Shown piece by piece: positions 3,294-56,489 of a DNA stretch of 61,889 nt. Within the stretch, counting starts at the first letter, position 1. The number at the start of each line of letters is the position of its first letter. Origin of the DNA: a virus (Duplodnaviria; Caudoviricetes); the IMG/VR virus record IMGVR_UViG_3300025110_000013, positions 1 through 61,889 of that record; one strand, written 5' to 3'. Under the pieces are notes generated by a model. That model was not told the DNA's origin. It saw nothing but the letters and a program-made list of their open reading frames with translations, and made no database searches. A program made the position numbers and the translations under genes.

Positions 3294-3320
3294 ATGGTGT
3301 TAGGTAATTGTAAGTAGTGT

Positions 3321-3689
3321 AATGTTCTATAATGTTCCATATTGTTCTAACAGGTGGGCGGGTAAGTGCTTGATAAATAAGTAATGTTCTAATGTTCGCT
3401 AAATGAGCGAAATTATGAGGGGAGGAAAATGTGCGAGAAGGGGAGAGAACATTCGTATCTTTTTTAAAGATTGAAAATGTAACCTCACTTTCTTTCTAAA
3501 AACGAACATTATAAAAATATTATATAAATATATAAATATATAAATAAATAAGAATAATACTTACCATTACTTACCATTACTTACCACTTCTACAATGTTC
3601 TTTTTTGCCTAAAAAAAAACGAACATTACGGAACATTACCCCCCATTTAGCGAACATTGCCGCCACACGGGCGTTTCGGGGCGAACATT
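3321..3689. repeat. Iteron-like AATGTTC/GAACATT cluster with an AT-rich core; candidate replication origin
   Basis: AATGTTC at 3321, 3331, 3383, 3391, 3594; GAACATT at 3447, 3504, 3621, 3631, 3652, 3683; AT-only tract ~3510-3550; TTACCATTAC tandem ~3561-3586. Confidence 0.6.
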
Positions 3690-4094: not shown

Positions 4095-4139
4095 AGTAAT
4101 TCCTTAGTGTGGGAATGCTCACGGCACTCCCGATTTGAT

Positions 4140-4295
4140 TTAGATGATGTTGTTGTACCAAGCTAGAAATAATGCAAACGCCGCCCAAAAGGTAAATGCA
4201 ATTGAACATACAATTTTGATGTGTTGGTTCCTAAAGAAGATCCTATCCTCTTCTTTCAATCTCGCGTGCGCGATCTGTCTCTCTGTCTCTGTCAT
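4140..4295 (-). CDS. Small membrane protein (51 aa, not in ORF track)
   Basis: MTETERQIAHARLKEEDRIFFRNQHIKIVCSIAFTFWAAFALFLAWYNNII; AAGGA SD; C-terminal hydrophobic helix. Confidence 0.6.
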   Translation of the reverse strand: MTETERQIAHARLKEEDRIFFRNQHIKIVCSIAFTFWAAFALFLAWYNNII

Positions 4296-4325
4296 TTTGT
4301 ATCCTTAAAAATTTGTGTAATTACA

Positions 4326-4355
4326 TAAAAAAGCGGGGATGCTCACGGCACCCCC
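4326..4355 (-). terminator. Intrinsic terminator; its hairpin is duplicated at 4111-4131
   Basis: Minus strand GGGGTGC-CGTGA-GCATCCCC-GC-TTTTTT directly after the stop of 4363..5220. Confidence 0.7.
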
Positions 4356-4362
4356 ATTTGCT

Positions 4363-5220
4363 TTACTCGTCTTCTGACTCTACTTCGTCGTCTGACTCTA
4401 TGTCGTCAGGATCTGAGCCTTCTGAATCTGCCCATACTTCCTGAGATCCACCAGCTGCTAGGAATAGAAACCGGAGACATTCGCCCATCTCCATTTGGTC
4501 AGCCCCTTCGTCAGGATCTATCTCGAATAATTCATCTCTGAATTTCAAGATTGCTTCCTTCTGAGTTAGTGCCTCAACCTCTGTCTCTACAGCATCCGGC
4601 TTAGGTTTGAACGGCTTAAGGAAGTTATGAACCATGTAGTTGGCATCCTTCCTTATGGTCTGTACAGCCGTCTTCGCGTACTCGCCGTAGGTGTTACCGA
4701 TCTTAGCCGGTGTCATAGTGCGGCAAGCTTGAAACACCTTATCGAGATCAAGACCGGAATTGATCTTGACATCGGATTGCATTGCCATTCCCAACTGAAT
4801 GGGATAGATGAAATCAGATCGGCGTTTTTCGTGCTTATCGATTTCAGCCGGTGTCATCGTTGCCTTTTGATCTGACGACAATTTGGTTAGCGCAGCATAC
4901 ATTGCGTCGCCATCGATCACCTTGATCGGCGTACCTTCTTCGTCAGTATCTTCGTATGAGAATGTACCGCGAACGGCTTCTTTCCAATCTTCTGAGGATT
5001 GGTCGAGCTTGCCTTTATCCATTCCCATCTTAAGCGCAGCATCGAGTACTTCGTCTGTTAGGACATCGATATTGCTTGTTCTAGCTAACGCGCTAGAGAG
5101 TCGGTCATTTACAGTTGACAACTGTTCGTTTGATTGCACTGTGGCAGATCTCCCGTTAGTTAATGAAATGCCGGTGACGTTCTCGCCGCCGACACCTATA
5201 CAATAACATAACACCGCCAC
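4363..5220 (-). CDS. Hypothetical early protein with an acidic C-terminal tail (true start probably downstream)
   Basis: Long ORF ending in a D/E-rich tail; a GGGAG SD precedes an internal GTG. Confidence 0.7.
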   Translation of the reverse strand: MAVLCYCIGVGGENVTGISLTNGRSATVQSNEQLSTVNDRLSSALARTSNIDVLTDEVLDAALKMGMDKGKLDQSSEDWKEAVRGTFSYEDTDEEGTPIKVIDGDAMYAALTKLSSDQKATMTPAEIDKHEKRRSDFIYPIQLGMAMQSDVKINSGLDLDKVFQACRTMTPAKIGNTYGEYAKTAVQTIRKDANYMVHNFLKPFKPKPDAVETEVEALTQKEAILKFRDELFEIDPDEGADQMEMGECLRFLFLAAGGSQEVWADSEGSDPDDIESDDEVESEDE

Positions 5221-5486
5221 GTATCAAGAAATGGCATTAGATACCACCAAAAATGTGTATTTACACAAATTAAGACCCTACCCGTACCCCATGCACCCGA
5301 TACTGATCTGGGACTCCGCAATCTCCTAGTATTATTAATCTGTATGAATAAATCGGTATTTTCTGAGTTTCGACCCCCCACCCCCTCATATATAGGGAAC
5401 ACCCCCCTTTGGAGTCCCATAAGTAGTTGTAAAAAATTATTTTTGGTATATATTCGCGTTAACGGCTAACAACCTGCGACACATAT

Positions 5487-6155
5487 ATGAGTTTAACGAT
5501 AGTCCCAGAATTGGGAGTTCCGTTTTCTCCAGAAGAATCTTACATGGACTTAAAGGTTCGCGCAGAAGCCGCTTGTAATACCGCATTAGAATTGGCAGAG
5601 CACGGATTGGATATAGAACCAACCAAAGAAGACAAGGACGTAGCGGCTAAATTGGCACTAGCCTACGCCGACGACCCCGAAAAAACCTCCAAGAAGGCGT
5701 CCTCTAAGAAGATTTCAACGCTCACGCCCGCCTCACTTATCCTAACTAACCAGATATTGAAGGAATTTGGACAGTCTGTGGTGGACAGTGCAGCCCAGAT
5801 ACGCCATTTGGTGACAAATAAGTTACTAATTGAGTCAGAAAACGCTGATCCCCGCATACGCGTGCGTGCATTAGAGCTATTAGGCAAGATTTCAGACGTT
5901 GGGTTGTTCTCGGAGAAGTCGGAAGTGACCATAACCCACCAATCTACGGACGATTTACGCGAAAAACTACGTAGTAAGCTCGAAAAACTCGTTAATCCGA
6001 CCGAATATGTGGAGGATGCGGTGATTTTAGAGGGGGAAGCCATAGATGTAGACGAGGAATTGGGCCTTCCTGACGAAGAAGAGGAAGAATACGACGACGA
6101 TGGGGATGATGACGAAGAATATGACGATGATGCAGAATGTCCGAGCCAGCCTTAG
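5487..6155 (+). CDS. Probable terminase small subunit
   Basis: Directly upstream of and overlapping TerL; RVRALELLGK motif; acidic tail. Confidence 0.65.
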   Translation: MSLTIVPELGVPFSPEESYMDLKVRAEAACNTALELAEHGLDIEPTKEDKDVAAKLALAYADDPEKTSKKASSKKISTLTPASLILTNQILKEFGQSVVDSAAQIRHLVTNKLLIESENADPRIRVRALELLGKISDVGLFSEKSEVTITHQSTDDLREKLRSKLEKLVNPTEYVEDAVILEGEAIDVDEELGLPDEEEEEYDDDGDDDEEYDDDAECPSQP

Positions 6156-7690
6156 ACTTTACTGAGGAAGAAGTCCAGCAAATGTTGGACAATTTGGACA
6201 TTTATACGCCAGAAGAGGTCGCAGAGATCAATACGCTGGTGGATGAGCTTGCGTCACGCAGAAAAAACCAAGCAGCGTACGATGATTTGATTGAATTTTG
6301 CAAAAGAATGCAGTCGGATTTCATTGTAGGTAAACATCACAGGCTGTTGGCCGATATGCTCATGGATATTGAGCAGGGGCAGAAGGATAGAATCTGTGTC
6401 AACATCCCGCCACGGCACGGTAAGTCTAATTTAGTGTCAATTATGTACCCAGCGTGGTTTTTAGGGCGAAATCCCAATAAAAAGGTGATGATGGTGTCCC
6501 ATACCACGGATTTGGCGGTAGATTTTGGCCGTAAAGTCCGTAATTTGATCGCTACAGACGAATATAAAGAGATATTCCCCACGGTTAGCCTAGCAATAGA
6601 CTCTAAGTCAGCGGGTAGGTGGAATACGAACGTGGGTGGCGAATACTACGCCTGTGGTATTGGTTCATCCATCGCGGGTCGTGGTGCGGATCTGTTGTTG
6701 GTAGATGACCCTCACTCGGAACAGGACGTAATTAACGGGAATTTTGAGGTATTTGCGAAAGCTTACGATTGGTTCACGTTCGGTGCCCGTACTCGTCTGA
6801 TGCCCGGAGGTCGTGTAGCGATTATCCAGACCCGTTGGCATATGGACGACCTGACAGGGCGTGTGACTAAAGACATGACGAACAATGAGCGGGCCGATCA
6901 GTATGAGGTGGTGGAGTTTCCCGCTATATTGGACACGACAGATAAGGAGAGTGGGGAGTCTATACAGAAACCCCTGTGGCCGGAGTTTTTTGATCTGGAC
7001 GCGTTATTAAGAACAAAAGCGTCTATGCCGGTCTTTCAATGGAACGCCCAGTATCAGCAGGAGCCTACCGCAGAAGAGGCTGCGTTGGTGAAAAGAGAGT
7101 GGTGGCAGATATGGACTCCTGAAGATCCGCCTTCCTGTGAGTATTTAATTATGTCTCTGGATGCCGCAGCCGAGACTCATAACCGTGCAGACTATACGGC
7201 CCTCACTACGTGGGGGGTGTTTATGAATGAAGAGACCGATTCGTATAATATTATCTTGCTAAATAGTATAAAAAAGCGTATGGAGTTCCCTGAGTTAAAA
7301 GAGCTGGCGATGGATGAGTACGCTGGGTGGGAGCCGGACGCGTTTATTGTGGAGAAAAAGAGTGCGGGAACAGCCCTTTATCAAGAGATGAGGCGCATGG
7401 GATTGCCTGTACAAGAGTATACCCCTCACAGGGGGTCTGGTGATAAACTAGCGCGGCTAAACTCAGTAGCAGACATCGTAGCGTCTGGTATATGCTGGGT
7501 TCCTGAAACGAGGTGGGCTGAAGAGGTAATTGAAGAGATTGCAGGATTCCCGTTTATGAGCCATGATGACTTGGTTGACTCCACGGTTATGGCATTAATG
7601 CGCTTCAGGCAGGGCGGCTTTATTCGTCTGCCAAGTGATGAACCGGAAGAAACGGTCTACTTTAAACAACGTAGAGGCGGGTATTACTAA
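6137..7690 (+). CDS. terL: Terminase large subunit
   Basis: Walker A PPRHGKS, Walker B LLLVDDP, TRWHMDDL, and C-terminal nuclease motif HDDLVDS. Confidence 0.95.
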   Translation: MSEPALDFTEEEVQQMLDNLDIYTPEEVAEINTLVDELASRRKNQAAYDDLIEFCKRMQSDFIVGKHHRLLADMLMDIEQGQKDRICVNIPPRHGKSNLVSIMYPAWFLGRNPNKKVMMVSHTTDLAVDFGRKVRNLIATDEYKEIFPTVSLAIDSKSAGRWNTNVGGEYYACGIGSSIAGRGADLLLVDDPHSEQDVINGNFEVFAKAYDWFTFGARTRLMPGGRVAIIQTRWHMDDLTGRVTKDMTNNERADQYEVVEFPAILDTTDKESGESIQKPLWPEFFDLDALLRTKASMPVFQWNAQYQQEPTAEEAALVKREWWQIWTPEDPPSCEYLIMSLDAAAETHNRADYTALTTWGVFMNEETDSYNIILLNSIKKRMEFPELKELAMDEYAGWEPDAFIVEKKSAGTALYQEMRRMGLPVQEYTPHRGSGDKLARLNSVADIVASGICWVPETRWAEEVIEEIAGFPFMSHDDLVDSTVMALMRFRQGGFIRLPSDEPEETVYFKQRRGGYY

Positions 7691-30702: not shown

Positions 30703-33700
30703 TGGCTGGAAGGCCAAGTATAAGTGAAACAGATAAACTTCTTATGAAGTATCTACAAAACCCTCCTGTACAACGATTCCAAGCGGGTGGTTTACCTATA
30801 CCTATTGCACCTGTCCCAACTAATCCTGACGCTAATAGACCTATAGATCTGCCAAAAGCCCAAAGTTATGGGGGTAGCCAACGTAAAACTATAGCCACTC
30901 TTAGAATGCTAAGTAAAGTTATGAAAGCGGTGGGTATGGGTAAAGAAATATGGAGTATATTAACAGCGCCGCCACCGCCCAACCCCGGCGGTGCTCCCGG
31001 TGGCACCCCTCCGTTTATAATGAATTTTGGTGCAAATACAGAGAATAAAGATGAATATGACCGCCAAGTACAAGGCGCAATACAAAGCATGGGCGAAAAC
31101 TCTGCGGCGGGGGGTTCGGCAATGGTGGGGGCTTCATTTACTAGTGGCGCTGGGTGGACGGCAGTAAACCCTGCTATAGCCGCCTTTCTTTATATCGGAG
31201 CTAAAGTAGTAGAAGGATTTATGCCCGACCAACGACCTTTTTCCTATCAAAAATTAGATTTTATGCGTGGAAGAGGTGGTGATCATGCGGCAACTTACGA
31301 AAAGTTAATAGCAGATGGGTATAACCCTAACGATAATTTATACAATATTTTTGTTAACCAGATAAAAACACCCCAAGATTATTATGAGTTTCGAGACAAG
31401 TATTTTGTAGGTGATTTTGAAACTGACACATTTAGAAAAGACTTTGGGCTTACCGATGATAACTTTTTCCCCGTAGAAGAACCGGAATACGTAGAGTTAG
31501 CAGGTACAAGAGTCTATAACACAACCGGTAATGAAGAAGCATTTGCAGGGGTAAAGGGTCTTGTAGATAAATTTAACGAATATAAAGACGAAGGATACTC
31601 TGAACTACGGGTATTAGAAGAACTGGGCGTTGAACTTGATCCTGAAGTTATGGAGTATTTTAAGCAAGCTGATTTAGCTGCATTAGAGGAGGCTAGAGAA
31701 GCGGGCGATAAAGAAGCTTATGCAAGACTTTTAGGGGGTATGAGCGCCGGAGTTGGCGAAGCCGCGGATCAACGAGCTTATGAGAAAGCGGCAGGTATAT
31801 TAACTCGGGAAGAAGCTCTTGAGAAAATATACGATATGCCCGGAGCACAGTGGCAAAGTAAAGAATGGATGGAAGAAGTTATAGACAACTTAATGTACGG
31901 AAACACAGACGAGAGTGTTAACCGAGACGACTTCAATCAATACGAAACTGCTAAAGAACAAATAGCGGGTAGAGATTCTGGCTACAAATATTCTGGTGAT
32001 GAAAGAGAAATATATGATTGGGCAGTCAAACATACTACTGATCTAGTAAAAGCAGGTAAATTAAAAAATTATGGGGGAGCAGAAGCTTATCTTAAAGATA
32101 TAGGGTTTGGTGATGCGGCTGAATTTATTCAAGATATAGCGGATGATGTGTTTGATAGTGTATATACATTAGATGAAGGTAGAAGAGACACAGTTCCTGA
32201 ACAATATTCTCAAGCTGAACTTACCGAATTACCGAAAGAAGAACCGCCAGAATCGGTTACAAACGCTGTAGATTTAGAAAAATTAAAAGAAGCAACTAAA
32301 GTAGAAGATACACCTGAAACAGGGTTAGAAGACCCTGACGCAGATTTAGAAGAAGTAGATGTTGTTACAGGAGATGATGACCCTGATAACACAGTAGATC
32401 CTGTTGTAGAACCTCCCCCAGATTTTGAAGACCCTAAAGAAGATGATGAGGAAGAAGACGGCGGTGGAGGAGGGGGCGAGGAAACTGAAAAAGTTGATAC
32501 AGACGGAGACGGTGTGCCTGATAGCGAAGACCCGTCACCTAAAAATCCTGATATAAAAACTCAAGAAGAACAAGATGCAGCGGAAAAGAAAGCGGCTGAA
32601 GATCTAGCAAAAGCAAATGCAGCGTGGGTAAAAGCTAAGATAGAGGCTAGAGAAAAAGCAGAAGCTAAAGAAAAAGCAGACAAAGAAGCGAAAGATGCGG
32701 CTGATGCTGAACGTAGGCGGGAAAAAGGATATGACGATCTAAATGCCGGTGAAAAGCGAATATTTGAAGCAATGGAAGAGATGGGGTGGGACCCCAAGGC
32801 AAATGATATCCGAAATCGGTATTCCCGAGACGGTAGGCCCGATTACAGACTAATCTCTCAATTTTGGACGCGTCATAGTAAGTGGAAATCCCAAGATGCT
32901 AGAGAAAAACAACAAGCTAAAACGGATGCAGAAACCGCAATACGTGCAGAGATAGGTGAAGGGCATCCTTTTTATCGGGTAACAGGTCAAAATGAAGACG
33001 GGTCACTTATTTTAGTAGACCCTTTTGGTAACGTATCTTCTGGACTTCCAAGTGAAGAAGACCCAACTTTAATAAACGGCGAAAGCTACGGAGACCTTCC
33101 CGCAGACACTAACAACTCCATGCTTCCTAAATGGTTGCAAACCTATTTAAGTACAGGTACTACAGACGGTGGTACTGATGGTGGTACTGACGGTGGTACT
33201 GAAACAGGTGGTGGTACTGATGGTGGTACTACTGGAGGCGGTACTGAAACAGGTGGTGGTACTGATGGTGGTACTACTGGAGGCGGTACTGAAACAGGTG
33301 GTGGTACTGACGGGGGTACTGACACAGGTGGTACAGACGGTGGTACAGACGGTGGTACTGATGGTGGAGATGATGGTGGTACAGATACTGGTACTACTGG
33401 AGGCGGTACTGACGGTGGTACAGACGGTGGTACTGATGGTGGAGATGATGGCGGTACTGATGGTGGTGGTACAGACACAGGTGGTGGTGACGGCGGAGAC
33501 GGTACAGGAGATGGTACAGGAGATGGTACAGGGGATGGTACAGGAACAGGAGATGGAAGCGGAGACGGTACAGGGACAGGAGATGGAAGCGGGGACGGTA
33601 GTGGGAGAGGAAGTGGAGCAGGAATGGGGATGGGGCTTTTACAGTTGTTGTCAGCCCCTGATGCGTTAGGTCAAAAAGTCGATGTAAAGCCGCCAGACCC

Positions 33701-37547: not shown

Positions 37548-40500
37548 ATGCCTATATATTCTGTTGCTGGGCCGGAAGGAGAAACTTATAGCATAGAAGG
37601 GCCGGAAGGAGCTACTCGGGATCAAATAGTTGGTGAAATAATAAGGCAGCTACAAGCCCAAGAGAAAGAAGAACAAGATAAACAAAGACAGGAACAATTA
37701 GCTGGTATTAGAGAAAGTAGACGAGGTTCTGTATCTCGCGGTCTTGATATCGGTACAGATCTTATTGCTCAAGCTACAGGCTCAAGCTTAGAAGGTATTG
37801 GTAGCCTTTTAGGACTTGAAGGGCTTGAAGAATATGGTGCTGACGTTGCACTAGAAAACGAAGCTGACATCCAACGTAAGTCACTTTACCAAACCCGTTT
37901 TGATGATATCGAAGGTGTAGGAGACTTTGGCTCTTACTTAGGCGGTATTGCTGCGGAAAGTGCCCCTCAAATGGGTGCTGGCTTAACAGGTGCTGCAATA
38001 GGTACAGCAATACTTCCCGGTCTCGGTACAGTAGTAGGTGGTATAGCCGGTGCTACGCTTGCTAACCTTCCTTTCTTCTATGGTATGAACCGTGAACGCC
38101 AAAAAGAAGCTATTGATTTAGGGATTAAAACTGAAGTAGATGAAGGAGCGGCTTTCTTAACCGCTTTACCACAAGCCTTACTTGATGGTGTTGTAGATAA
38201 GTTATTACTAGGGGCGGGAAAAGGTTTTGGGTTTACTGATAAAGCAATTCGTAGTGGAGGATTGTTTACCAGAGGCGCTAAAGGCATAGGCACAGGTGTA
38301 ATTACTGAAGCTCCTACTGAAGTAGGTCAGCAAATGTTAGAACGTGCTCAAGCTGGGCTATCGTTAGACAGTGATGAAGCAATAGCAGAATACAGAGAAG
38401 CCGCAATTGCAGGTGGTTTATTAGGTGGTGCAGTTAGTGGAACAATTAATGTTGGTCGAGGAAGAATCCAACAAGAAGATACGAATGTTATAGATAAAGA
38501 TGGGGAAGATGCTACACCTATACCCACAAAAACAGCACCTGTAGGGGCAGCAGGGTTAGGTGCGCTTGCGGATGCAGAACAAGGTGACCTTACCGATGCA
38601 GATGTAGCCGAGGCTAGAAAAGAGTTAGATACGGTTAGTCAGGTACGGGATACTGATAAAAAACTAAAAGAAATAGTAACTGATGAAGACGTAGACAAAA
38701 TATTAAGTGACGCGGGTAGAGCAGAAGAAGAAACAGACAGAATAATAAATGCTACTGCGGATGCACAAGAAAAAGCTTTTGAACAAGACTATGGTATTGC
38801 GGAAACCCGCGGTGCTACTGAAACTGGAGACGAAAGGACAGTAGATCCTACAGAAGGTGTGGCAGTAGTAGAAAGGGCAGCAGATGAAGCAGTAGTAGAA
38901 GCAGAAACCCGCGGTGCTACTGACACTGGAGACGTTGAACGCGCAGATACACAAACAGAAGACGAAGCAAGAAGATTAAAAGATGAACAAACAACTGATG
39001 CGTTAGGCGTATTAGCTGAAGAACAAAGTGATTTTACCACTATATTTGCCAAAGTAGACGAAAAGTTAAACAGGCGACCTAAAGTAGTTACTGAGGAAAA
39101 AACTACCGGCGTAGAAACCGGAGCAGAAGTAGAAACCGGAGCAGAAGTAGAAACGGAAACGGAAACGGAAACGGAAACGGAAACGGAAACGGAAACGGAA
39201 ACGGAAACGGAAGTAGAGCCAGCGATAGAACCAGCAATAGAACCAACAGATAGACTTGGAACCATCGCTGAAGCAGCCGAGGCAGTAAAAGAAGAAGCGC
39301 AAGAACAAGTAGATGTAGTAGGTCAGGTAGAAGAACAAGCCATAGAAGACGCGGAGGCGTTAGTAAGGACAAAAGGTTTTAGAGACAAAAAAGCTGAAGA
39401 CTTTACAGACGAAGAGATTAGTACCTTTGCTACGGCAATACCCGCGCTAGAAAGAAATAAGATGTCTATGAAGGAGAAATCTAACTACATAGAAATGGTT
39501 TCTACCAACGACCAAGCGGATTTTACTGCTAGAGAAGGGCGGGAACCGACTAACCAAGAAAGAAATGACATATTTAATAAAGCCAAAAATGAGATAAATA
39601 ACGAACAGAGGTTAATCTCTAAACGATTAAGTAAGCTCAAAAACGATACTAAACCAATACGAACTAAGATCGAAGACGAAGCCGCTGCCATTGAAGCCGC
39701 AAAAGATAAAAAGCCTATAAGAGAAAGACTCGATACTACGACTAAGGTTAAAGAAGCAGAGGTAGGTGCGTTAGAGGCTAGAGAAGAAATAGAAGAAGGT
39801 AAAGTTGAAACCGTTGAAAAGAAGATAGAAGGCCAGAAAAAACCAATAGTTACTTCTAAAAAAGAACAAAAAGCAATACAAAAATTAAATGAAGCAATAG
39901 ACGAAAATTGGGAACAAACCCAATCTGAAGCGTATAAAGCTTATGTAGATAGTGGTAAGCAAAAAGTAAATGCCCCTAAACTACCTTCAAACCTTAGTGA
40001 CTCAGAAGCTGTAACAGAGCTTTTCTTAGGAGAAGGGAAGCTAACCGAGCAAGAACAGGATGCGCTTACTTATTTAACTGCACATCCAACCTTAGAACGT
40101 AATTTATTCGATCTAGCTTACGAGGATGCAGTAGATGCCCCTGCATATCAAGCATCAGAAGACGCTTCCCCTGCGGAAAAAGAATTTTTTGCTGGTAGGG
40201 GCGGGAAACACAGGAAAAATGCTCTTGCTTGGGTTAGAGATAACCTATCTGCTGAAGCAAATATGTGGGTAGTCAACGCAACGAAAAGTGAAATTGCTAG
40301 GCTTGATCGGAATCCGCCCCTTACCGCAGATTATTACGATGTGAATACAAAAGCATCTCCATCGCCTTTCGGGCTTGAAAAATCTGTTAACACGCCACAA
40401 GTATACGATGGTTATTTTAATGCAGCCGAAAACTTGGCTAGGATGAATGTAGCGAATGACCCTAAATTTTTAGAGTGGTTAAATAAACAACCTCAAAAAG

Positions 40501-44528: not shown

Positions 44529-44747
44529 TCATACGGTTCTCCAGAAACGCACACCCAATTTGCCTTTTTCTATACGAACCTTATGCTCCAAAGTCATGCC
44601 TTTAGTATGGCCTATTTGTGTAATTTCTGTTAAGACCTTATCAGTATTAATACAAGGAATGAATATGGACGCCCCAACTACCATATCCGTCCATTTAATA
44701 ACTACCCGTACGCCATCCGGTGCAACGTCATCAATCTTCCGCATCAA
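44529..44747 (-). CDS. Small hypothetical protein
   Basis: Overlaps the primase stop; ends GVRFWRTV. Confidence 0.7.
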   Translation of the reverse strand: MMRKIDDVAPDGVRVVIKWTDMVVGASIFIPCINTDKVLTEITQIGHTKGMTLEHKVRIEKGKLGVRFWRTV

Positions 44748-47544
44748 AGTCTACACCAGAGCAATCCACGGATATAACATCAGTAGATGGTAGCCGCATA
44801 TGTGTACCTTTACCTAAACGAATCTTGTCCTTCTTCCCTTTTAACTTCTCCATTAAGTCTTGTACGAAAGAAGCGTAGTTAATCTGCTGCGCCCCACACC
44901 AAATACGTAATGGTTTAGGTAGCAGATAGGCGCGTTTTGTATCCGTCTCGTACCGTGCGACCAAAGCCCCTCTTGGTAAGGCATCAGGGACAACCAACTG
45001 ATCTAACCCGTTACCCTTATTCTGCTTACGTAAGTCATCAGTACTTTTGATCTGTAATATGTTGTTCCAGTTCTCGTTAATATACTCGTTTAAAGTCTGC
45101 TCCACAGACGCGTTCATATCGTCAAAGGAATTCTTGTTACGCTTAAGAACTGTGCGTATCCACTTATAAACTTTCTTAGTATTGTAGGGTAATAATTCAA
45201 TACGTTTACATAGTATAAGGGCCGTCAATGAACACGCAGCACCCGCAGACCAGAAGCGGTTTTCCGCTGCAAGCTCTGCCTCCTTATCTATCTTCTTCTG
45301 TACGGACTCTAATAGCTCCCTAACCTCATCTAAATTGTTAATAACGTACTGTACGAACGGTAATCCCGCGTGACCCCAATTATTAAATATGTTTTTACTG
45401 AATTCGTCAGTCTTCTCTTTATCAGTAGGGGACTTAAACATCTTATCTACTTTGTATTCTAAAATACGCTGTGCTTCTGCTTTAGGAGCGTCTTTATATA
45501 ACCCAATACGCTCTATCATACTAACATTGCCTGTGGATACAGAGTTGAAACTCCAAGCATCACCGTTATACCGCTCTGCATTGACGCTACCTGTCATCCT
45601 TCTTCTCTGCCTACCACTTACGTACTGGTAGGCTAAGTTACTCAGCTCTTTAGCACTAAGATTAGTAATCTCGTCTAAGAAGAAAGGTAGGCTGTGATAC
45701 ACCTCACCCCGATTCATCTTAGTAGCATAGGTGTCTTCTTTCTCCATTAGTAATTCTTTGGGGTTACCCCACGGAGTTAATGCTGCGTATAGTGCGGTTG
45801 TTTTGCCGTACCCTGTGTCCTTACTGTAAATATGTAAAGAGGCGCACGCTACCGGCATAAGTTCCATAAGAATAGAACCAAAAGAAGCTCCAACAACATA
45901 TTGGTAAGCCTCTTGCCCTTCTTCATTAAAAAACCCGATCATCTCCTTCCACGCATCCATAGTGCCCTTTGGTTCAAAGGCGTGGAACAACCCTGCTGTA
46001 TTAGTGGAAGGCGGGTTAAACTCTATACGATCTCCAAAGACCTCCATGTTACCTAATACAAAGGACTTCATTTCTTCGCTAGTCCAACCGAACTGCCTGT
46101 GTGCTTCATCAGCGGTTACAGTCGCCTGTAATTCATTAACCCAAGTGGTTGTATACTGCATAAGTTCATCCATTCTACCAATCGCAACGCCGTGCATTGA
46201 CATATATTTACGGAATTCTTCCTTAGAAGTGGCCGCAGTAAGAGGCACCGTAAACTCCCTTACCCCATCTTTGGGTAGGTGAAGCCGCATCACGATAGCC
46301 TCGCCTATCTCTGCATCACGTATGCGTTTAACTACATATAGGTCATTATGGTACACCATCTTTTCTTCTATCTCGCCATCCGCATCGCTAGAGCGTACAT
46401 ATATACCCCCCGTAGCCCCTCTAAAATAAGGGCGTGGGTAGTCAGGTATTACATAAGTCTGAGCAGGGGCGTTGGGTCGGTTCGCAGAGAGGGCTTCTAC
46501 TATATTATCCTCCTCTTCCGCTTCTTTTATGGCCTTACCAAGCACTATTGGGGACTTTATCTTCCCCCAATGTTTACATTCGGTACATACGTTCGGGTTA
46601 TATTCGTCAAAAGTACTGCACAGGTACGGCCCTTTTATAAGGTCTACCTTCTCCATTGTCTCTTGCTCAGAAAACTCTGGGTGCCGTTTCGATATATTCA
46701 TTATGGCTTTGTCAGAGTCTACGCAAAATTTGGCGATTGATAGCCCCGCCCTCCACATAGGTTCGCTACATTCTTCTTGTTTACCTATGATCGTACCTAG
46801 CTGCCTACAACCGTTACCCTCTCCCGTCTTGACAATTATGTCCTTAAACTTAGTTTCCATGTTGCCCATTAGCGCATCCATCATTGCGCTTGAGGGGGCG
46901 GGGGTAAATTTCTTAGGAACTGGTATCGATTCTCCACCGAGTATTTCCGCAAACTCTTCAAAGTCCACAAGTTCTGGTATCTCTACGCCCATAGGGAGTA
47001 CAGGAGTAGGCGGATCGTCTTTATGGTTATGGGTGTACGGCACACGAAGTACTCGCGCTCCATCAGAAGTTACCGCTGGATCTGGTAAGAACTTATGGAG
47101 ACCACAATAACGCTTCAGTTGTTCCGCTACAGGTAACCACTTCTCGTAGGAAACCGCCTCTGACAAAATCCAGTAAACGTGTATACCTCTGCCAGAACTA
47201 ACTATTAGAGGTTTAGGCAAGCCCACTTCTTTAGTGAACTTACGAAGTGCTTTTAGTCCTTCCGTCTGGTTTATATAATCTTTACTAGGGCCGCAATCAA
47301 TATCAAAAAAGAACGCTTTTAAGTCCTTAACATTAACTGCTTTACGGGAACCTTCTTCTTTAAAAGTTCCTAAAGCAAAATACGTATCGAATCCATTCTG
47401 GTCTAGGTTTGTTGCTGTGTGTATTAAGTCATCTATCGTTGTAAAAAATTTCTGTGTTATTTGTTCTTCTAAAAGTTTTGAAGCGAAGAGGCAATAATAA
47501 CCATCCCCGCTAAGTACCCTCTGTAGAAATGTTTTTGAATCCAT
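44731..47544 (-). CDS. Bifunctional AEP primase / helicase (DUF927-like)
   Basis: AEP motifs DIDC, SSGRGIHVYW and RVLRVP; Cys cluster; Walker A DTGYGKTT; Walker B FFLDE. Confidence 0.85.
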   Translation of the reverse strand: MDSKTFLQRVLSGDGYYCLFASKLLEEQITQKFFTTIDDLIHTATNLDQNGFDTYFALGTFKEEGSRKAVNVKDLKAFFFDIDCGPSKDYINQTEGLKALRKFTKEVGLPKPLIVSSGRGIHVYWILSEAVSYEKWLPVAEQLKRYCGLHKFLPDPAVTSDGARVLRVPYTHNHKDDPPTPVLPMGVEIPELVDFEEFAEILGGESIPVPKKFTPAPSSAMMDALMGNMETKFKDIIVKTGEGNGCRQLGTIIGKQEECSEPMWRAGLSIAKFCVDSDKAIMNISKRHPEFSEQETMEKVDLIKGPYLCSTFDEYNPNVCTECKHWGKIKSPIVLGKAIKEAEEEDNIVEALSANRPNAPAQTYVIPDYPRPYFRGATGGIYVRSSDADGEIEEKMVYHNDLYVVKRIRDAEIGEAIVMRLHLPKDGVREFTVPLTAATSKEEFRKYMSMHGVAIGRMDELMQYTTTWVNELQATVTADEAHRQFGWTSEEMKSFVLGNMEVFGDRIEFNPPSTNTAGLFHAFEPKGTMDAWKEMIGFFNEEGQEAYQYVVGASFGSILMELMPVACASLHIYSKDTGYGKTTALYAALTPWGNPKELLMEKEDTYATKMNRGEVYHSLPFFLDEITNLSAKELSNLAYQYVSGRQRRRMTGSVNAERYNGDAWSFNSVSTGNVSMIERIGLYKDAPKAEAQRILEYKVDKMFKSPTDKEKTDEFSKNIFNNWGHAGLPFVQYVINNLDEVRELLESVQKKIDKEAELAAENRFWSAGAACSLTALILCKRIELLPYNTKKVYKWIRTVLKRNKNSFDDMNASVEQTLNEYINENWNNILQIKSTDDLRKQNKGNGLDQLVVPDALPRGALVARYETDTKRAYLLPKPLRIWCGAQQINYASFVQDLMEKLKGKKDKIRLGKGTHMRLPSTDVISVDCSGVDFDAED

Positions 47545-49801: not shown

Positions 49802-49830
49802 AGTATAGTGGTATCCAATATGTTATACAA
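49802..49830 (-). promoter_or_regulatory. Sigma70-like promoter
   Basis: Minus strand TTGTAT-17 nt-TATACT; the spacer contains TGGATACCAC, also present at 51390-51400. Confidence 0.5.
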
Positions 49831-51358
49831 GTATTTCTTTGTATAAATCTATCATTTTTGTGTGTACGTCAATTCTATTATCAAGTAATGAGTAGACACG
49901 CTTTTCTATGAAGGAACCTTCTAGTTGTACTACCGTACATTTATGGTCTTGCCCTGCCCTATGCACCCTAGCATTGGCTTGCGCGTAGGTTTCTAAAGAG
50001 CTAGTCGGCCCCCACCACACCACTGTATTAGCAGCGGTTAATGTAATACCGTGGGCAGCAGCTTGCGGCTGTATGACAAGTACTTGAGGAAAGTCAGTTT
50101 CTTGAAATCTTTTGAATATATCGGTGCGTTTATTGACGGATACATCCCCCCTGATTACCTCCGTAGGTATACCGTCTTGTATTAATTTATCAGTGAGCAC
50201 ATCAATAACGTGCTTAAACGGGACAAAGACTAGGACTTTCTTACTAGACTCATCGATTACTTCCCGTAGCACCTTATACCTATGTTTAATGTCGAACTCT
50301 AATGCTTCTCCGTCATCCGTATAGATAGCCCCAGACGCAATCTGTAGGAGTTTATTCATTTCAACGGCAGCATTAACAGCGGTAATCCGTTCTCCCCCTG
50401 CTTGCACTACCATTTTACTCTTTAATTCGTTGTAATATTTCTTCTGTTGCCGTGTCATTTCTACAGTTCGTTTGGTGTAAACCATATCGGGTAGGTCAAG
50501 GCACTCTTCTTTTGTAAAACGTATAGCGGGCTGCAAAGCATTAAACACCCGATCAGTTGCGTCAGGTTTCGGAATCCATTTAAAGTTGGTTAGTTTGTAC
50601 ATAACTGAATCTCTAAACGCGCTAAAGAATCTAGGGACTGAGTATGGGTTGACCAATTTGGCTAGACCAAATGCGTCTAAGGGGGACTGTGCAGCGGGTG
50701 TACCTGTCATCATCCATAACCATGTGTTTGGGGTGACTAAACTGTTAAGGATTTTCCACCGTTTAGTTTGGACGTTTTTATAATGTGTCGCTTCGTCTGC
50801 AATAATCAAATCAAAGCCACCGTTTGCTATTGCATCAGCTACTATCTCCACTCCGTCATAATTAATTATGATGAACTCCGCTCCCCCCTCTATTATCTGT
50901 TTACGTTTAGCAGGTGCTCCATAAGCAACGTCTACTGAACGGTGCATTGCAAAAGTAAATAAATCTTCCCGCCACGCTGAATCCATAATAGATAAAGGAC
51001 ATATCACCAATACGCGTTTTATACGCCCTTGGTTTATTAGGTAATCAGCCGCCCATATGGCACTAGCGGTTTTGCCTGTACCCTGCTCATTAAAGCAAAA
51101 GGCTCGCTTGTTCATGGTTAGAAAAGAAGAAGTGGTTTTTTGGTGGTCGAAGGGTTTGTACTTACCCGTCCATTGATACTGCCCTTCGATTGGGGATGGG
51201 ACTTTAATATTAAGGTTTTTTAATACGTGCGACTCGTCAACCCCCCAGTTAACTAGTACTTTGTTTCCTGATAATCTCTTACTCTTAGGTATAATATCTG
51301 TTACTTTTTCGGGGTCACGTAGGTTTAATAGTATTGCTCTGTTATCTATTACCCGCAT
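49823..51358 (-). CDS. SNF2-family (SF2) helicase
   Basis: NEQGTGKT, IIADEATH, MTGTP, HGITLTAA, QANARVHRAGQ. Confidence 0.9.
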   Translation of the reverse strand: MRVIDNRAILLNLRDPEKVTDIIPKSKRLSGNKVLVNWGVDESHVLKNLNIKVPSPIEGQYQWTGKYKPFDHQKTTSSFLTMNKRAFCFNEQGTGKTASAIWAADYLINQGRIKRVLVICPLSIMDSAWREDLFTFAMHRSVDVAYGAPAKRKQIIEGGAEFIIINYDGVEIVADAIANGGFDLIIADEATHYKNVQTKRWKILNSLVTPNTWLWMMTGTPAAQSPLDAFGLAKLVNPYSVPRFFSAFRDSVMYKLTNFKWIPKPDATDRVFNALQPAIRFTKEECLDLPDMVYTKRTVEMTRQQKKYYNELKSKMVVQAGGERITAVNAAVEMNKLLQIASGAIYTDDGEALEFDIKHRYKVLREVIDESSKKVLVFVPFKHVIDVLTDKLIQDGIPTEVIRGDVSVNKRTDIFKRFQETDFPQVLVIQPQAAAHGITLTAANTVVWWGPTSSLETYAQANARVHRAGQDHKCTVVQLEGSFIEKRVYSLLDNRIDVHTKMIDLYKEILV

Positions 51359-52613: not shown

Positions 52614-52855
52614 TATATCTCCTTACTTTCCGAGGGAGTTCTGCCCTTATTAAACGCTTCTATCTCAGCTTTATTAGGAATCCAGAATATGTTCTTCTCT
52701 AACCTAATCTCATGGATGGTCTTCACTATAGCGAAATCTATATTAGGAAAGTTCTTTACGTGCGTTTCTTTAGCTTCGTAAGCATCCTGTACTGAATCGT
52801 AATGCCCATCTATAAAAGGCGTCCCTAAAAATAATATGTCGTATTTACCGTTCAT
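52613..52855 (-). CDS. Hypothetical protein
   Basis: ATGA overlap with the PolA stop. Confidence 0.65.
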   Translation of the reverse strand: MNGKYDILFLGTPFIDGHYDSVQDAYEAKETHVKNFPNIDFAIVKTIHEIRLEKNIFWIPNKAEIEAFNKGRTPSESKEI

Positions 52856-54678
52856 TCACATTCTCCATAAGACCTTCCCACAAAAGCCTCGCAATCCAAA
52901 GGTAACCCTTCGGCCCAATCTGGAACCCAACGCATATACATCTCTATGTCTTGCTTCGCTTGTTCTACATCGTCCTCCTTGACGCAGCATACAATCGAGT
53001 CATGTACAGTCAGTGCTACACGATGTTTCTTTGATATCTTTAGCATCTGTTCTGCAATAATGCAACGGGCTAACGCTTGACACGCGTTCTCCACAAATTT
53101 CCCACCGTATATCTTGGCGCGTCCGTTCCTTCTTTTATATGTATACTCCATACCTTTAGAATCATTGACCCCCTTAAGATCGTCATACCGCATAAGTAAT
53201 CCAGAGGGAAGGCGCACTGCTGATAAATCACCAACCGGCTCCAGTACTTGAGGTACACCGATTGACTTCTCTTTACCTTTAGCTAACTCACGGATCATAA
53301 GCTGTGCTTCTTGCCACAAACCACTTATCTCTGCATTAGCTTCTCGATAAACCTGTATAACCCGCCGCGCTTCCTCGATGTCTATTTCAAATCCGAAAGT
53401 ACCCATCTGCGCTTGGAACTTAACCGCGCCCATGCCGTAACCACTGCCTAATATTGTGGTCTTACCAACAAACCGTTCGTCTTTAGTAACCTCTGACTCA
53501 TCTTTATTGTAGATACGGGAAGCCATCTTTACATAGACATCCTCTCCGTTGCGGAAAGAACTAACCAAATCCTCTTGCCCCGCCAACCATGCAAGTACTC
53601 TTGCCTCTATTTGAGCAGAGTCACAGTCAATCAAAACATAGCCGTCGGGAGCTATGATACTTCTCTTTAAGGTCTTACCATCAGGCCCACGACTAGGAAG
53701 GTTTTGTAAGTTAATCTTGTCATCACCACCCCATCGACCTGTATGGGCAGCGTAATATCTTACAGGCACAGGCAGTATGCCGCGTCTGGATATGTCGATA
53801 AATCGTTGGGTTCGGGTTTCTTCTAGGGTGCTTTTGTTACCAAGCCGCGCCGCTACTAAAGCTTGGATACTAATAGATGGATGTTCTTGCAGTGCTTTGA
53901 ACCCTTCATCTGTCTTAGCGAAAGCATACGTTTCTTTTCCAGTGGTAGGGCTTATCTTAGTAGGGGGAATAACGCCGTTCTTCTTTAGCAGTTCAGCAAA
54001 CTTATCGTTACTCATCAGGGATTCTTTACTAACCCCCGCCTCTATGAGTAGATCATCCTTTCTATCTCGTATCGCTATAAGGTGTTGCTCTAGCAGACCC
54101 ATATCCAAATCTAGTATGGGTTCTATAAACATACGAAGTGTAGTATCAATCACCTTAAGTTCTTGTCTGGGATAACCCGCCGCCATTATTGAAAACAATT
54201 TGTAGGTCAGTTCGACATCGTTAATACAGTAGTCGCCATACTTATCAAGGCTTACTTCGCTAAACTCTTCTCGACGCTTACCCATTGCATCGACTACTTC
54301 AGTACCCTTCTCACCAATATTATAACGCTGCGCTAATGCAGCTAGACTACCGCCAACCTCTACACCATGCAGACTTCTAGCCATACATAATGTATCGGCC
54401 CAAACCTTCGGGTGTATGTCGAACAGCCAAGACAGTATTGCGCCATCAAACATGGTGTTATGTGCAAGCACCATGCTGTTAGCCCAATCGAATTCATGTA
54501 GGTATTCTTTAGTTTGTTCAAACGTGCCGCTCGCCCACTCTGCGTACCCATCGTTTACTTTTATGCTAACGCCCACCACTTCAAAACGAGGGTCGCGTAC
54601 GTATTCTTCTGTAGTAAGTTTACTCAGTGAGAAGTCCTTACTGTAAAAGGTCTCAAAGTCTATTGTTATTAAGTCCAC
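52852..54678 (-). CDS. polA: DNA polymerase family A with 3'-5' exonuclease
   Basis: Exo DFET, HNTMFD, YCINDV; motif A DSAQIEAR; motif B RFVGKTTILGSGYG; motif C VHDS. Confidence 0.93.
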   Translation of the reverse strand: MDLITIDFETFYSKDFSLSKLTTEEYVRDPRFEVVGVSIKVNDGYAEWASGTFEQTKEYLHEFDWANSMVLAHNTMFDGAILSWLFDIHPKVWADTLCMARSLHGVEVGGSLAALAQRYNIGEKGTEVVDAMGKRREEFSEVSLDKYGDYCINDVELTYKLFSIMAAGYPRQELKVIDTTLRMFIEPILDLDMGLLEQHLIAIRDRKDDLLIEAGVSKESLMSNDKFAELLKKNGVIPPTKISPTTGKETYAFAKTDEGFKALQEHPSISIQALVAARLGNKSTLEETRTQRFIDISRRGILPVPVRYYAAHTGRWGGDDKINLQNLPSRGPDGKTLKRSIIAPDGYVLIDCDSAQIEARVLAWLAGQEDLVSSFRNGEDVYVKMASRIYNKDESEVTKDERFVGKTTILGSGYGMGAVKFQAQMGTFGFEIDIEEARRVIQVYREANAEISGLWQEAQLMIRELAKGKEKSIGVPQVLEPVGDLSAVRLPSGLLMRYDDLKGVNDSKGMEYTYKRRNGRAKIYGGKFVENACQALARCIIAEQMLKISKKHRVALTVHDSIVCCVKEDDVEQAKQDIEMYMRWVPDWAEGLPLDCEAFVGRSYGECE

Positions 54679-54705
54679 GTTATTAGTTCCAGTAGTATTT
54701 GCATT

Positions 54706-54867
54706 TTAAGATTTAGTGAGTACGATTTTTTCTCTGTGGAAACCCCTACGTATACCCACCGCTTTAGTCATACCAATAGGTACTTGTTTAATCTCCCCTC
54801 CTTTACTCAAGAATTCTGTAACTTTATCGTTAAGTTCTTTACTTTCTTCTGCCTTCGTTTTATTCAT
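54706..54867 (-). CDS. Small SutA-like RNA-polymerase-binding protein (53 aa)
   Basis: ELNDKVTEFLSKGGEIKQV resembles the SutA core (EEFLxRGGKVQEI). True ATG at 54867; the longer ORF merely runs through the array. Confidence 0.55.
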   Translation of the reverse strand: MNKTKAEESKELNDKVTEFLSKGGEIKQVPIGMTKAVGIRRGFHREKIVLTKS

Positions 54868-54872
54868 TTTTA

Positions 54873-55343
54873 ATAACCACACCTGCCAAACCACACACCA
54901 CCTTGACCCGCCGTAATCCACCTGATCCCAACCCGCCATACCTGCCAAACCCCAACCGAATCTACCGGACCTCTGCATAACTCAACTTGCCGCAACGCAC
55001 CTGACCTGCCTTACCGGAACCCAACAAAACTTAACGTAAACCACCTTAACTGAACATATCCTACCTGCCTTACCACACCCCATCTTGGCCCACCACAACC
55101 CATCTAAATAAACCACACCTGACCTGCCATACCGCATCGTGCCTTATCTCAACATACCCCGAGCCACCATACCTGCCTTACCTTACCTCGCCAAACCTAA
55201 CCTCGCCGCATCCAAACGCATCTGACCATGTCATAACTCGCCTTACCTGCCAAATCATGCCCCAGCCTAACCCACCAAAACCTTACAAATCCAAACCGAC
55301 CTGACCACACCTGCCAAACCAAACCGCATCCAGACCAAGCCAA
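54873..55343 (-). ncRNA. Non-coding pentamer-register array (GGCA + n x G-N-Y-N-N); candidate guide-RNA array
   Basis: GGCAGGT (plus-strand ACCTGCC) at 54881, 54940, 55004, 55063, 55122, 55171, 55245, 55309. Spacings 59, 64, 59, 59, 49, 74, 64 are all 5n+4. Of 80 pentamers, 74 start with G, 78 have a pyrimidine at position 3, and 40 are GGY. Confidence 0.85.
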
Positions 55344-55344
55344 T

Positions 55345-55845
55345 TTATTTTTTAAGAAACAAACTGATTGGTTCCAAGACATCCGATAACTCGGACAAGG
55401 CTTTGTATTTGTTTGTAAATGCCTCTAGCTCCTTCTTTGCGTTGTCAACTAACTGTTGTCTGCCTTCGGGATCTTTCAACATATCAAACGTGTTAAGCCA
55501 GATTCTTTGGGGCTTGCCGCCGCACTCAATCTTTGCTCGTTGAAACAAACGAATCTCTGTAGGTTCGATCTGATCCTCGTTTAACTTCTCAGTCACTACT
55601 ACTAAAGACCTTTTGATATTTTTCTCTGTTATCAATCGGAATTTATTACCCGCTATTTCGTCGTTCCATTCAAAGTCGTTATGCAAAACAGACTTTGGGC
55701 TACGAGCGTGTTCTACTAAAGAACCATCGGGGGCATAACCCCCGTGGCGTTTATTCAGAGCCTCTATTTCCTTTAGAGCAGCGTTCGCATCTGCCTTGAA
55801 AAAAGACCCCTTTCTCCATTTAACTTCGGTGTAAACAGGTTTCAT
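55345..55845 (-). CDS. Partner protein of the RAMP cassette (166 aa)
   Basis: LVEHARSPKSVLHNDFEWNDEIAG motif; ATGA overlap with the RAMP gene; the array starts 3 nt after its stop. Confidence 0.8.
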   Translation of the reverse strand: MKPVYTEVKWRKGSFFKADANAALKEIEALNKRHGGYAPDGSLVEHARSPKSVLHNDFEWNDEIAGNKFRLITEKNIKRSLVVVTEKLNEDQIEPTEIRLFQRAKIECGGKPQRIWLNTFDMLKDPEGRQQLVDNAKKELEAFTNKYKALSELSDVLEPISLFLKK

Positions 55846-56489
55846 GCTGCTGTTTCCGATTCAAAGTCTATGAAGGTTTCCTTCAGTTCAATTTGATGCT
55901 TGAACTCCCTGTCAACCTCAAACCGACCATACTCACCGCCCTTTTCTGGGCGCATTTCACCTAGTCCAACACCGAAACCGGCCCTTTGTATTAGATTTAA
56001 GATGGTATTTTGTGTCAGCGATTGAGAGTCAAACTCCATCCGAACGATCATCGACCAGTTACGAAACTCAGGACGATAACGCAAATCAGTAGAACCCATG
56101 CCTACCCGAACTATGTCTTCCCGCATCAGAGGGTCTTCTGATTCAAAAGCACACAGATTGTTGACCGTATCATCAGGAATAATGAACAGGGACTTTCTAA
56201 GTAAAGTCTTTTCAAGTCCGATGTCTTTGTGAGCAGCATTGATAAAACACCTTTTCAATCCCCCTGCCGGAAACCCAAAGCGTCCATCCTCACAAACATA
56301 AGCAGCATCCCTAAACTCTTGCTCTGGGTCTCTGACATCTCGGTTCTTCACCTTCACCCCTTGGTGCTTGTCCTTCATCATCTTTATTGCTTTCATACTC
56401 CACTTATGCTCGATCAAAGCAGAGATCCCCTTGATGCGCGTGGTCAAAATCGACTGCTGCATCTCTTCAAGTTGTATTACGTTACTCAT
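55842..56489 (-). CDS. Stand-alone RAMP/Cas7-like RNA-binding protein (215 aa)
   Basis: N-terminal strand RIKGISALIEH; FPAGGLKRCF (cf. RAMP PgSslKG); YRPEF..W; C-terminal Gly-rich loop GFGVGLGEMRPEKGGEYGRFEV; AGGA SD before the ATG at 56489. Confidence 0.8.
   Translation of the reverse strand: MSNVIQLEEMQQSILTTRIKGISALIEHKWSMKAIKMMKDKHQGVKVKNRDVRDPEQEFRDAAYVCEDGRFGFPAGGLKRCFINAAHKDIGLEKTLLRKSLFIIPDDTVNNLCAFESEDPLMREDIVRVGMGSTDLRYRPEFRNWSMIVRMEFDSQSLTQNTILNLIQRAGFGVGLGEMRPEKGGEYGRFEVDREFKHQIELKETFIDFESETAA

Follow-up and report, generated by a model that had tools for sequence, protein, structure and literature searches.

Which gene does a guide-like unit in the genome of an uncultured phage read, and what kind of element carries that gene? 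The question is raised by the complete virus record IMGVR_UViG_3300025110_000013 (Duplodnaviria; Caudoviricetes), which represents an uncultured phage of ~62 kb and was analysed here over its whole length of 61,889 bases (hereafter, the window). The minus strand of the window contains an array of G-rich pentamers, and the last full unit of this array, unit 7, had been predicted from the letters alone to spell a Walker A P-loop when every third target base is skipped. Systems of the Viral Interference Programmable Repeat (VIPR) kind are phage-encoded, silence by RNA guides in a CRISPR-like way and have recently been described in preprints, in which their protein Vipr is presented as an ancestral RAMP protein (10.64898/2026.04.26.720920, 10.64898/2026.04.26.720927, 10.64898/2026.10.15.759431). 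The Vipr polymerises on guide RNAs named vrRNAs, in which GGY alternates with a variable dinucleotide (NN); the NN pair with double-stranded DNA and the third target base is skipped, this base being mostly the wobble position of a codon, which is described as the '1-nt skip' rule (nt, nucleotide) (10.64898/2026.04.26.720920). The 'wobble-skipping code' of the original prediction is this published rule (10.64898/2026.04.26.720920). Our analysis indicates that unit 7 is very probably a vrRNA guide of a phage-borne VIPR system, directed against the Walker A loop of the primase-helicase of integrated islands.

The P-loop read by unit 7

Read on the minus strand (54946..54888), unit 7 begins with the head GGCAGGT and continues with pentamers of the form NN-G-[G/A/T]-[T/C], namely ATGGC, GGGTT, GGGAT, CAGGT, GGATT, ACGGC, GGGTC, AAGGT, GGTGT and GTGGT, and then TT, continuing into the next head. 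The NN string given in the original prediction, AT GG GG CA GG AC GG AA GG GT TT, proved exact when this strand was read again; it encodes GxxxxGK and then G, the canonical S or T after K being absent. The pattern ATnGGnGGnCAnGGnACnGGnAAnGGnGT, which covers the first ten NN and leaves the eleventh (TT) outside, matched 29 metagenome contigs. This search of mobile genetic elements and hosts had been proposed together with the prediction, and all 29 matches lie in frame, with the NN at codon positions 1 and 2, in open reading frames (ORFs) of up to 799 amino acids (aa). All of them read IGGQGTGKGV, so that a string called compatible with a P-loop is met in real targets by a genuine Walker A loop. 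Of these matches, 25 are homologues of one primase-helicase family with 47-100% mutual identity, three are a distant relative of 550 aa and one is a fragment. The 29 matches hold 18 distinct target strings, in which all ten skipped positions are polymorphic, and the unsearched eleventh NN fits 13 of the 18. In the local set of target loci, which had been chosen with the unit 7 pattern itself, unit 7 scores 22/22 under skip 1, as against 15-16/22 under the other skips (0, 2 and 3); shuffled strings do not exceed 17.

The family of the target protein can be named from several databases. Pfam gives DUF5906 (E 2e-21), the model of which begins exactly at the motif, a VapE-like domain (4e-10) and a weak PriCT_2, and the target families are annotated as DNA primase in PHROGs, with E down to 6e-44. 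The PDB entry 6k9e, named 'Primase', aligns to the target with E 1.6e-11 and places GKQGTGKG at the position of the motif. In the contig L180, Prim-Pol and PriCT_2 are found in the ORF upstream of the helicase. These sequence comparisons support the Walker A loop of the metagenome primase-helicase as the predicted target of unit 7, read under the 1-nt skip.

The phage has Walker A motifs of its own, and the four that had been listed for it (GHMGTGKS, NEQGTGKT, DTGYGKTT and PPRHGKS) are all present (Table 1); the score of unit 7 at NEQGTGKT is just 13/22. Over the whole window, unit 7, which was the single unit examined in this respect, has 0 matches at three or fewer mismatches, and its best self score is 16/22 (73%), which lies below the threshold of 80% of the NN bases that natural VIPR targets reach.

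Homologues of unit 7 form the last unit in the arrays of three related phage loci. The copy in L089 has one NN base changed, which turns T to A in the loop, and the copy in L091 has three NN bases changed, with R read for the second G of the loop. The copy in L092 keeps 21/22 NN bases and 21/33 filler bases, and therefore the NN positions are regarded as the conserved information of the guide.

The distant relative mentioned above is an identical protein of 550 aa in L183, L185 and L186, which carries the IGGQGTGKGV loop and matches 20/22 NN bases of unit 7. It has no Pfam or PHROG match, and its identity to the main helicase family is only 25% over 101 aa; a second class of element within the reach of unit 7 may thus be represented by it.

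Further guides and the integrated islands

Each unit of the array was scanned over the 29 target loci under skips 0-3, together with 1000 order shuffles and 1000 random draws. The elements reached by unit 2 and by unit 7 are the same, since the same contigs carry both sites; the original prediction, in which a second unit supported the wobble-skipping code, was borne out here. Unit 2 matches 24/28 NN bases in L179, 23/28 in L193 and 22/28 in L180, in frame, at the site KEMMQxWADYLD in a P4-type integrase of 397-432 aa, and a score of 24 was reached by 0/1000 order shuffles and 0/1000 random draws. Unit 1 matches 20/24 NN bases on the antisense strand of an ORF of ~100 aa downstream of the helicase, with the skipped base at the wobble position, a score reached by 0/1000 order shuffles and 1/1000 random draws. 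For units 3-6, no target above the shuffle range was found in the 29 target loci.

The guides of other Vipr loci match the target elements as well, in the integrase and in the small ORF. Among 897 guide windows of eight pentamers, taken from all fetched arrays, 24 reach at least 15/16 under skip 1, compared with 6, 3 and 3 under skips 0, 2 and 3. The small ORF of ~100 aa is rich in Cys and Arg and lies downstream of the helicase of the islands (L174:1616-1945(-), L181:739-1038(-), L188:2030-2320(+)); in addition to unit 1, it is matched by guides of L090, L094-097, L111, L114, L115 and L117. A local scan of ~1.1 Mb of the loci of relatives gave no skip-1 target above shuffles. The perfect skip-3 matches seen in the same ~1.1 Mb were rejected as targets, because they are homologous guide units.

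The target elements look like integrated islands as far as their gene content can tell. Of the 29 target loci, 11 have an integrase homologue, the remaining contigs being short, and a tRNA gene stands beside the integrase in L174, L179, L180 and L193. In L179 and L193 the order is compact, with the tRNA gene, the P4-type integrase, small genes, Prim-Pol/PriCT and the SF3 helicase in about 4.5 kb. P4-like and PICI-like satellites have an integrase and a primase-helicase as their core genes. Some of the island contigs carry cargo, namely a Schlafen/AlbA_2 protein and a MalT/LuxR regulator. Guide-like arrays of at least ten pentamers were found in 0/30 target loci, and there is therefore no sign of decoy guides borne by satellites.

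Several points weigh against a VIPR guide aimed at the helicase of these islands. The 29 matches are homologues, so the database match amounts to one or two independent events. A pattern of 20 bases is expected to give ~1 match by chance, by an estimate that takes 4^20 as about 1.1e12 and for which the size of the collection is not stated, and the shuffle controls cover the local target loci. The pattern of unit 7 has 0 matches in viral contigs. The loop of the target, GGQGTGKG, is not a canonical GxxxxGK[ST]; GKG is taken as a family variant of the Walker A loop, because the solved homologue 6k9e has GKQGTGKG there. The long conserved 3' tail and pseudoknot of the type found in phage SUSP1 cannot fit units of the length seen in the window, and at its second filler base the repeat is less strict than the GGY of the published systems. 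The RNA evidence consists of contigs, none of which spans an intact unit 7. Furthermore, a comparison of the islands with the phage found no structural, capsid or packaging genes in common, the sole similarity being a weak one to the 937-aa primase of the phage. The taxa given for the islands in the protein atlas are mixed, and a meeting of phage and island in one cell is presumed.

It could be argued from some of these points that the VIPR array is real and the match of unit 7 a coincidence, in which a GG-rich guide meets the commonest glycine-rich motif of proteomes and has its real target elsewhere. Indeed GG is the commonest NN (15/80 pentamers of the array and 5/11 in unit 7), and the common descent of the matches, the confinement of the shuffle controls to the local loci and the empty search of viral contigs are in line with such a coincidence. 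Yet 22/22 bases fit, including those of the non-glycine codons AT, CA, AC, AA, GT and TT, two more units of the array have matches in other genes of these contigs that outscore 1000 shuffles, and the guides of other Vipr loci match these elements too, preferentially under skip 1. In a far larger genome collection of 596 Gb the pattern has one match, which is outside the family, in a 57-aa ORF reading GNG, and which looks like chance. The weight of the unit 7 match comes from its frame, from the unsearched eleventh NN and from the two further guides on the same contigs, and we consider a coincidence very unlikely.

What the elements are to this phage is a separate matter. They may be targeted without being its satellites, as ordinary integrative islands, defective prophages or integrative plasmids, in which case the role of the system may be a general competition among mobile elements or a manipulation of the host. 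The cargo genes of some contigs and the lack of capsid, packaging or other phage-like genes common to islands and phage would suit this explanation, as would published VIPR guides that are directed against prophages and other VIPR systems (10.64898/2026.04.26.720920). It is set against the precedent of the phage SUSP1, the VIPR of which targets a satellite recombinase (10.64898/2026.10.15.759431). The compact layout of L179 and L193, with its tRNA gene, P4-type integrase, Prim-Pol and SF3 helicase, also speaks for satellites. On balance such an explanation is rather unlikely, although a serious one. The anti-satellite role in the original prediction is supported: an integrase and a primase-helicase do lie on elements flanked by tRNA genes, and such a role is published for SUSP1. 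That the elements are satellites of this particular phage is a presumption, because islands and phage have no structural genes in common.

If unit 7 is a guide against the islands, its action can be proposed as follows, by analogy with the solved complex of SUSP1. The array would be transcribed together with vipr and the vap-like gene, and each Vipr protomer would take up one pentamer, of which the G-D-Y triplet would be buried and the NN dinucleotide exposed. In this form, unit 7 would engage double-stranded DNA through its 11 NN, with pairing at two bases in three. As the wobble position is the one skipped, the unit would read only the codon-defining bases of I-G-G-Q-G-T-G-K-G-V-F, and what is read would be the Walker A loop in the SF3-type primase-helicase of small tRNA-integrated elements. 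Since unit 7 has mRNA sense, its pairing partner would be the template strand, and the replication gene of the element would no longer be transcribed. In the same elements, unit 2 would act on the integrase and unit 1 on the small gene. We infer that the guides are expressed and processed, that Vipr forms filaments, that the targets are silenced and that the elements parasitise this phage.

The array, the Vipr protein and the partner gene

The array belongs to the replication module on the minus strand and is positioned between a gene of 166 aa and a SutA-domain gene, which is followed by DNA polymerase A (Table 1). All eight minus-strand copies of GGCAGGT in the genome fall inside it. Between these eight heads are 80 pentamers, with 9-14 in each unit, compared with 9-16 in published VIPR guides. 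Position 3 of the pentamer is G in 74/80 and position 5 is a pyrimidine in 78/80 (T 59, C 19), position 4 is G in 41, T in 25, A in 11 and C in 3, and positions 1-2 are mixed. The unit length is 49-74 nt and equals 4 modulo 5 in 7/7 units, and each head therefore shifts the register by one base. Ranked by period-5 power, the top seven 200-nt windows of the genome all fall within 54801-55450, with values of 2.99-4.41 (median over the genome 0.65, 99th percentile 2.41). A scan of the whole genome found no second array of this kind. An Rfam scan of 54500-55600 with E up to 10 gave two chance rows for long non-coding RNAs and nothing else, and blastn found nothing similar to 54700-55400 in phage records.

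Table 1. Features of the window discussed in the text, with positions on its 61,889 bases.
Feature	Position	Strand	Remarks
Unit 7	54888..54946	-	11 NN; 1-nt-skip reading IGGQGTGKGVF; 59 bases
Units 3-6	54947..55177	-	Best scores inside shuffle range
Unit 2	55178..55251	-	14 NN; matches KEMMQxWADYLD motif, C-terminal, in integrase of islands
Unit 1	55252..55315	-	12 NN; matches start of ~100-aa ORF of islands, antisense
vrRNA array	54881..55340	-	Leader of 6 pentamers, 7 full units, terminal GGCAGGT head; 'staggered' type
vipr	55842..56489	-	215 aa from ATG common to relatives; open frame to 56636; RAMP/Cas7-like
Candidate vipr-accessory (vap-like) gene	55345..55845	-	166 aa; between vipr and array
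SutA-domain gene	54706..54873	-	55 aa; PF20661, E 2e-9; start 8 nt past last head
DNA polymerase A of phage	52852..54678	-	Context gene
Walker A GHMGTGKS	541-1656	-	Own motif of phage
Walker A PPRHGKS	6137-7690	+	Own motif of phage
Walker A DTGYGKTT	44731-47544	-	Own motif of phage
Walker A NEQGTGKT	49823-51358	-	Own motif of phage

The product of vipr resembles the SUSP1 Vipr protein (PDB 36pp_D), with E 3.9e-12 for a profile of 19 homologues and E 4.2e-7 for the single sequence. Its AlphaFold2 (AF2) model has a pLDDT of 85.8, and the best Foldseek matches of this model are Csm3/Cas7 chains with E about 3e-6, the Csm3 matches ranging from 3e-6 to 1e-4. The family has 965 members and is without a Pfam domain, and a G-rich loop, GFGVGLGExRPEKGG, is kept across the 19 aligned homologues. 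The protein of the 166-aa gene has an AF2 pLDDT of 93.5. It has no Pfam match, Foldseek found nothing in the pdb set at E of 0.001 or below, and in a wide VIA-align search its best Z was 4.4, for a helical hairpin only, with no convincing fold match.

The link between the protein and the arrays was followed in two sets of 80 viral loci each, one collected with the polymerase as query and the other with a profile of the 215-aa protein, an array being called at ten or more in-phase pentamers. In the Vipr set, 72/80 loci have an array on the strand of the gene and 0/80 on the opposite strand, and a homologue of the 166-aa gene, which also occurs in five Gordonia phage records, lies directly 3' of vipr in 73/80. 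Among the relatives of the DNA polymerase, pentamer arrays are found in 2/80, namely L009 (polymerase 93% identical) and L029 (69%), and these are the same two of the 80 that carry a vipr homologue. A minimal VIPR locus as published pairs vipr with one vap gene, the families of which are named vap1-6, and has guide arrays beside them on the same strand. As judged from sequence, the locus is a VIPR system, with a Vipr homologue, pentamer guides and the combination of vipr, partner gene and same-strand array.

Other roles are conceivable for this G/T-rich tract, and the pentamers might be an R-loop replication origin, a cluster of primase sites or a binding site for a ring protein like TRAP, not an array of guides. 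The sense strand has a strong excess of G over C (202 vs 47), the tract adjoins replication genes, and about 11 triplets per unit with 2-nt spacers resemble TRAP sites. These structural or regulatory functions, however, leave three things unaccounted for: that the arrays occur strictly together with a Vipr homologue, that units turn over between phages with 93% identical polymerases, in which the guide units other than unit 7 differ wholesale, and that three units match a single family of elements in frame under the 1-nt skip. We regard them as extremely improbable, and the TRAP-like site, the R-loop origin, the primase-site cluster and a packaging site were all dropped on the association of protein and array and on the targets.

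Several observations on the guide array and its relatives stand beside this result. In run X2, a contig of 511 nt (window 54774-55315) keeps the flanks of the array and units 1, 5 and 6, and has 113 other letters in place of unit 7 and 56 letters in place of units 2-4, a variant that looks like a cassette-like turnover of guides between strains. In the metatranscriptome run X4, a contig of 96 nt covers unit 1 (window 55241-55312) without mismatch at a depth of 474, and a contig on the neighbouring 166-aa gene has a depth of 2; contigs cannot give RNA ends or levels, and this is a hint that unit 1 gives rise to a stable small RNA. Runs X1, X3 and X4 leave parts of the array uncovered, which is uninformative on expression, as is the loss of unit 7 in X2. 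The most expanded VIPR locus among those examined is L132 (locus coordinates 4117-6775), which has three big arrays, with 143, 51 and 128 pentamers in runs, and two tandem vap-like ORFs. In L029 (1796-2100) the array directly follows vipr, ahead of a gene of 167 aa, and the junction is GGCGGTC compared with GGCAGGT in the window; at the level of the letters, the punctuation motif of the arrays varies between lineages.

Some other sites of the genome deserve mention. The SutA is a host-type RNA polymerase-binding factor and is unusual for a phage, and it may be a hint at the host group. The gene-poor region at 3320-3640 holds short direct repeats, with the 10-mers TAATGTTCTA and TACTTACCAT and a run of the 8-mer TATATAAA; it is close to the point where the two transcription modules diverge and may serve as an origin or as a cluster of promoters. 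In-frame tandem repeats are present at 33168-33600 and 39105-39254, inside structural genes of 1082 aa and 2297 aa, and a perfect run of (GAAACG) x 10.5 is found at 39150-39212. These are probably variable repeats of fibre or internal proteins.

Comparison with known VIPR and CRISPR systems

The VIPR system itself is already in print in the preprints of 2026, and the idea of an anti-satellite role has been published for the phage SUSP1 (10.64898/2026.04.26.720920, 10.64898/2026.10.15.759431). The VIPR code was worked out, as far as these sources describe it, in phages of E. coli and Pseudomonas. In the present case the raw sequence of an environmental, uncultured phage was enough to read the code and to arrive at concrete natural targets, and 3/7 guides converge on one family of tRNA-integrated elements, which would make a case of conflict between phage and satellite outside the enterobacteria. 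With this locus, the ATP-binding loop in the replication helicase of the element joins the target classes; it is unnamed in the main texts of two of the papers. The words 'primase', 'Walker' and 'P-loop' are absent from the main text of one (10.64898/2026.10.15.759431), and 'primase' is absent from the main text of the other, where 'Walker' and 'P-loop' were not searched (10.64898/2026.04.26.720920); the supplements of both lie outside this comparison.

The locus is also a natural example of a staggered array without tails, with compact parts, namely vipr, a 166-aa partner gene and short guides. Tentatively, and with nearly as much to be said for it as against it, such a tail-less 'staggered' array in an abundant uncultured lineage of aquatic phages might provide immunity at the level of motifs. 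Each guide would read only those codon positions that do not vary within a motif of catalytic or structural importance, such as the Walker A of the helicase or the C-terminal motif of the integrase; a guide of 11 repeats would span a family diverged to 47% protein identity, and synonymous drift would give no escape. If this is true, the relaxed G-D-Y filler and the change from Trp to Met described below would mark a Vipr lineage with a different pocket for RNA recognition, and processing at GGCAGGT without a pseudoknot cap would be a mechanism new to characterisation.

The type II system of Escherichia phage SUSP1 is similar to the window locus in several respects. Both are phage-encoded and have vipr, then an accessory gene, and then a downstream array; the guides of both are built of pentamers in which a buried G-rich triplet alternates with the variable NN. 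The natural targets of both fit the 1-nt skip with the wobble base skipped, belong to an integrated element and include its integrase, and neither system targets itself, as judged in the window from unit 7. The differences begin with the proteins. The Vipr of the window is related only distantly to that of SUSP1, over residues 107-193 in the single-sequence comparison, and the accessory gene of the window is without a homologue in E. coli phages. In the HMMER alignment to 36pp_D, the window protein has E-M-R in place of D177-W178-R179. A Met thus stands at W178, which in SUSP1 Vipr stacks on the second G of GGY, whereas R179 is kept, and so are the acidic character of position 177 (D in SUSP1, E here) and the YRP-motif arginine R138 (10.64898/2026.04.26.720927). 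The loss of the W178 equivalent parallels the relaxed second filler base, which is G in just over half of the pentamers of the window. The targets differ as well, since unit 7 is directed at the Walker A of a primase-helicase.

The guides themselves set the two systems further apart. Type II guides as known from SUSP1 are ~100 nt long and have an invariable structured 3' tail with a pseudoknot, and the units of the window have none of these features. The window locus was not filed as type II, because its units measure 49-74 nt, they consist of pentamers from one head to the next and only GGCAGGT is common to them. A closer likeness is found in the staggered vrRNA arrays described in the legend of fig. 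S18, in which neighbouring positions overlap by 1 nt, the end of one guide being the start of the next (10.64898/2026.04.26.720920). The slip of the register by one base at every GGCAGGT of the window resembles this arrangement, the comparison being with the legend alone. Small-RNA sequencing is reported there to have confirmed the architectures with interspersed ribozymes and with single guides, and this is not stated for staggered arrays (10.64898/2026.04.26.720920).

The Class 1 CRISPR systems, with Cas7 and Csm3, have the same fold class as Vipr, with RRM, G-loop and thumb, and in both cases each protomer covers one guide repeat, with a periodic flipping-out of bases. In contrast to these systems, the window system is without CRISPR repeats or cas genes and is encoded by a phage of lytic type. 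Furthermore, VIPR pairs 2/5 of the guide bases and 2/3 of the target bases, compared with 5/6 in Class 1 CRISPR.

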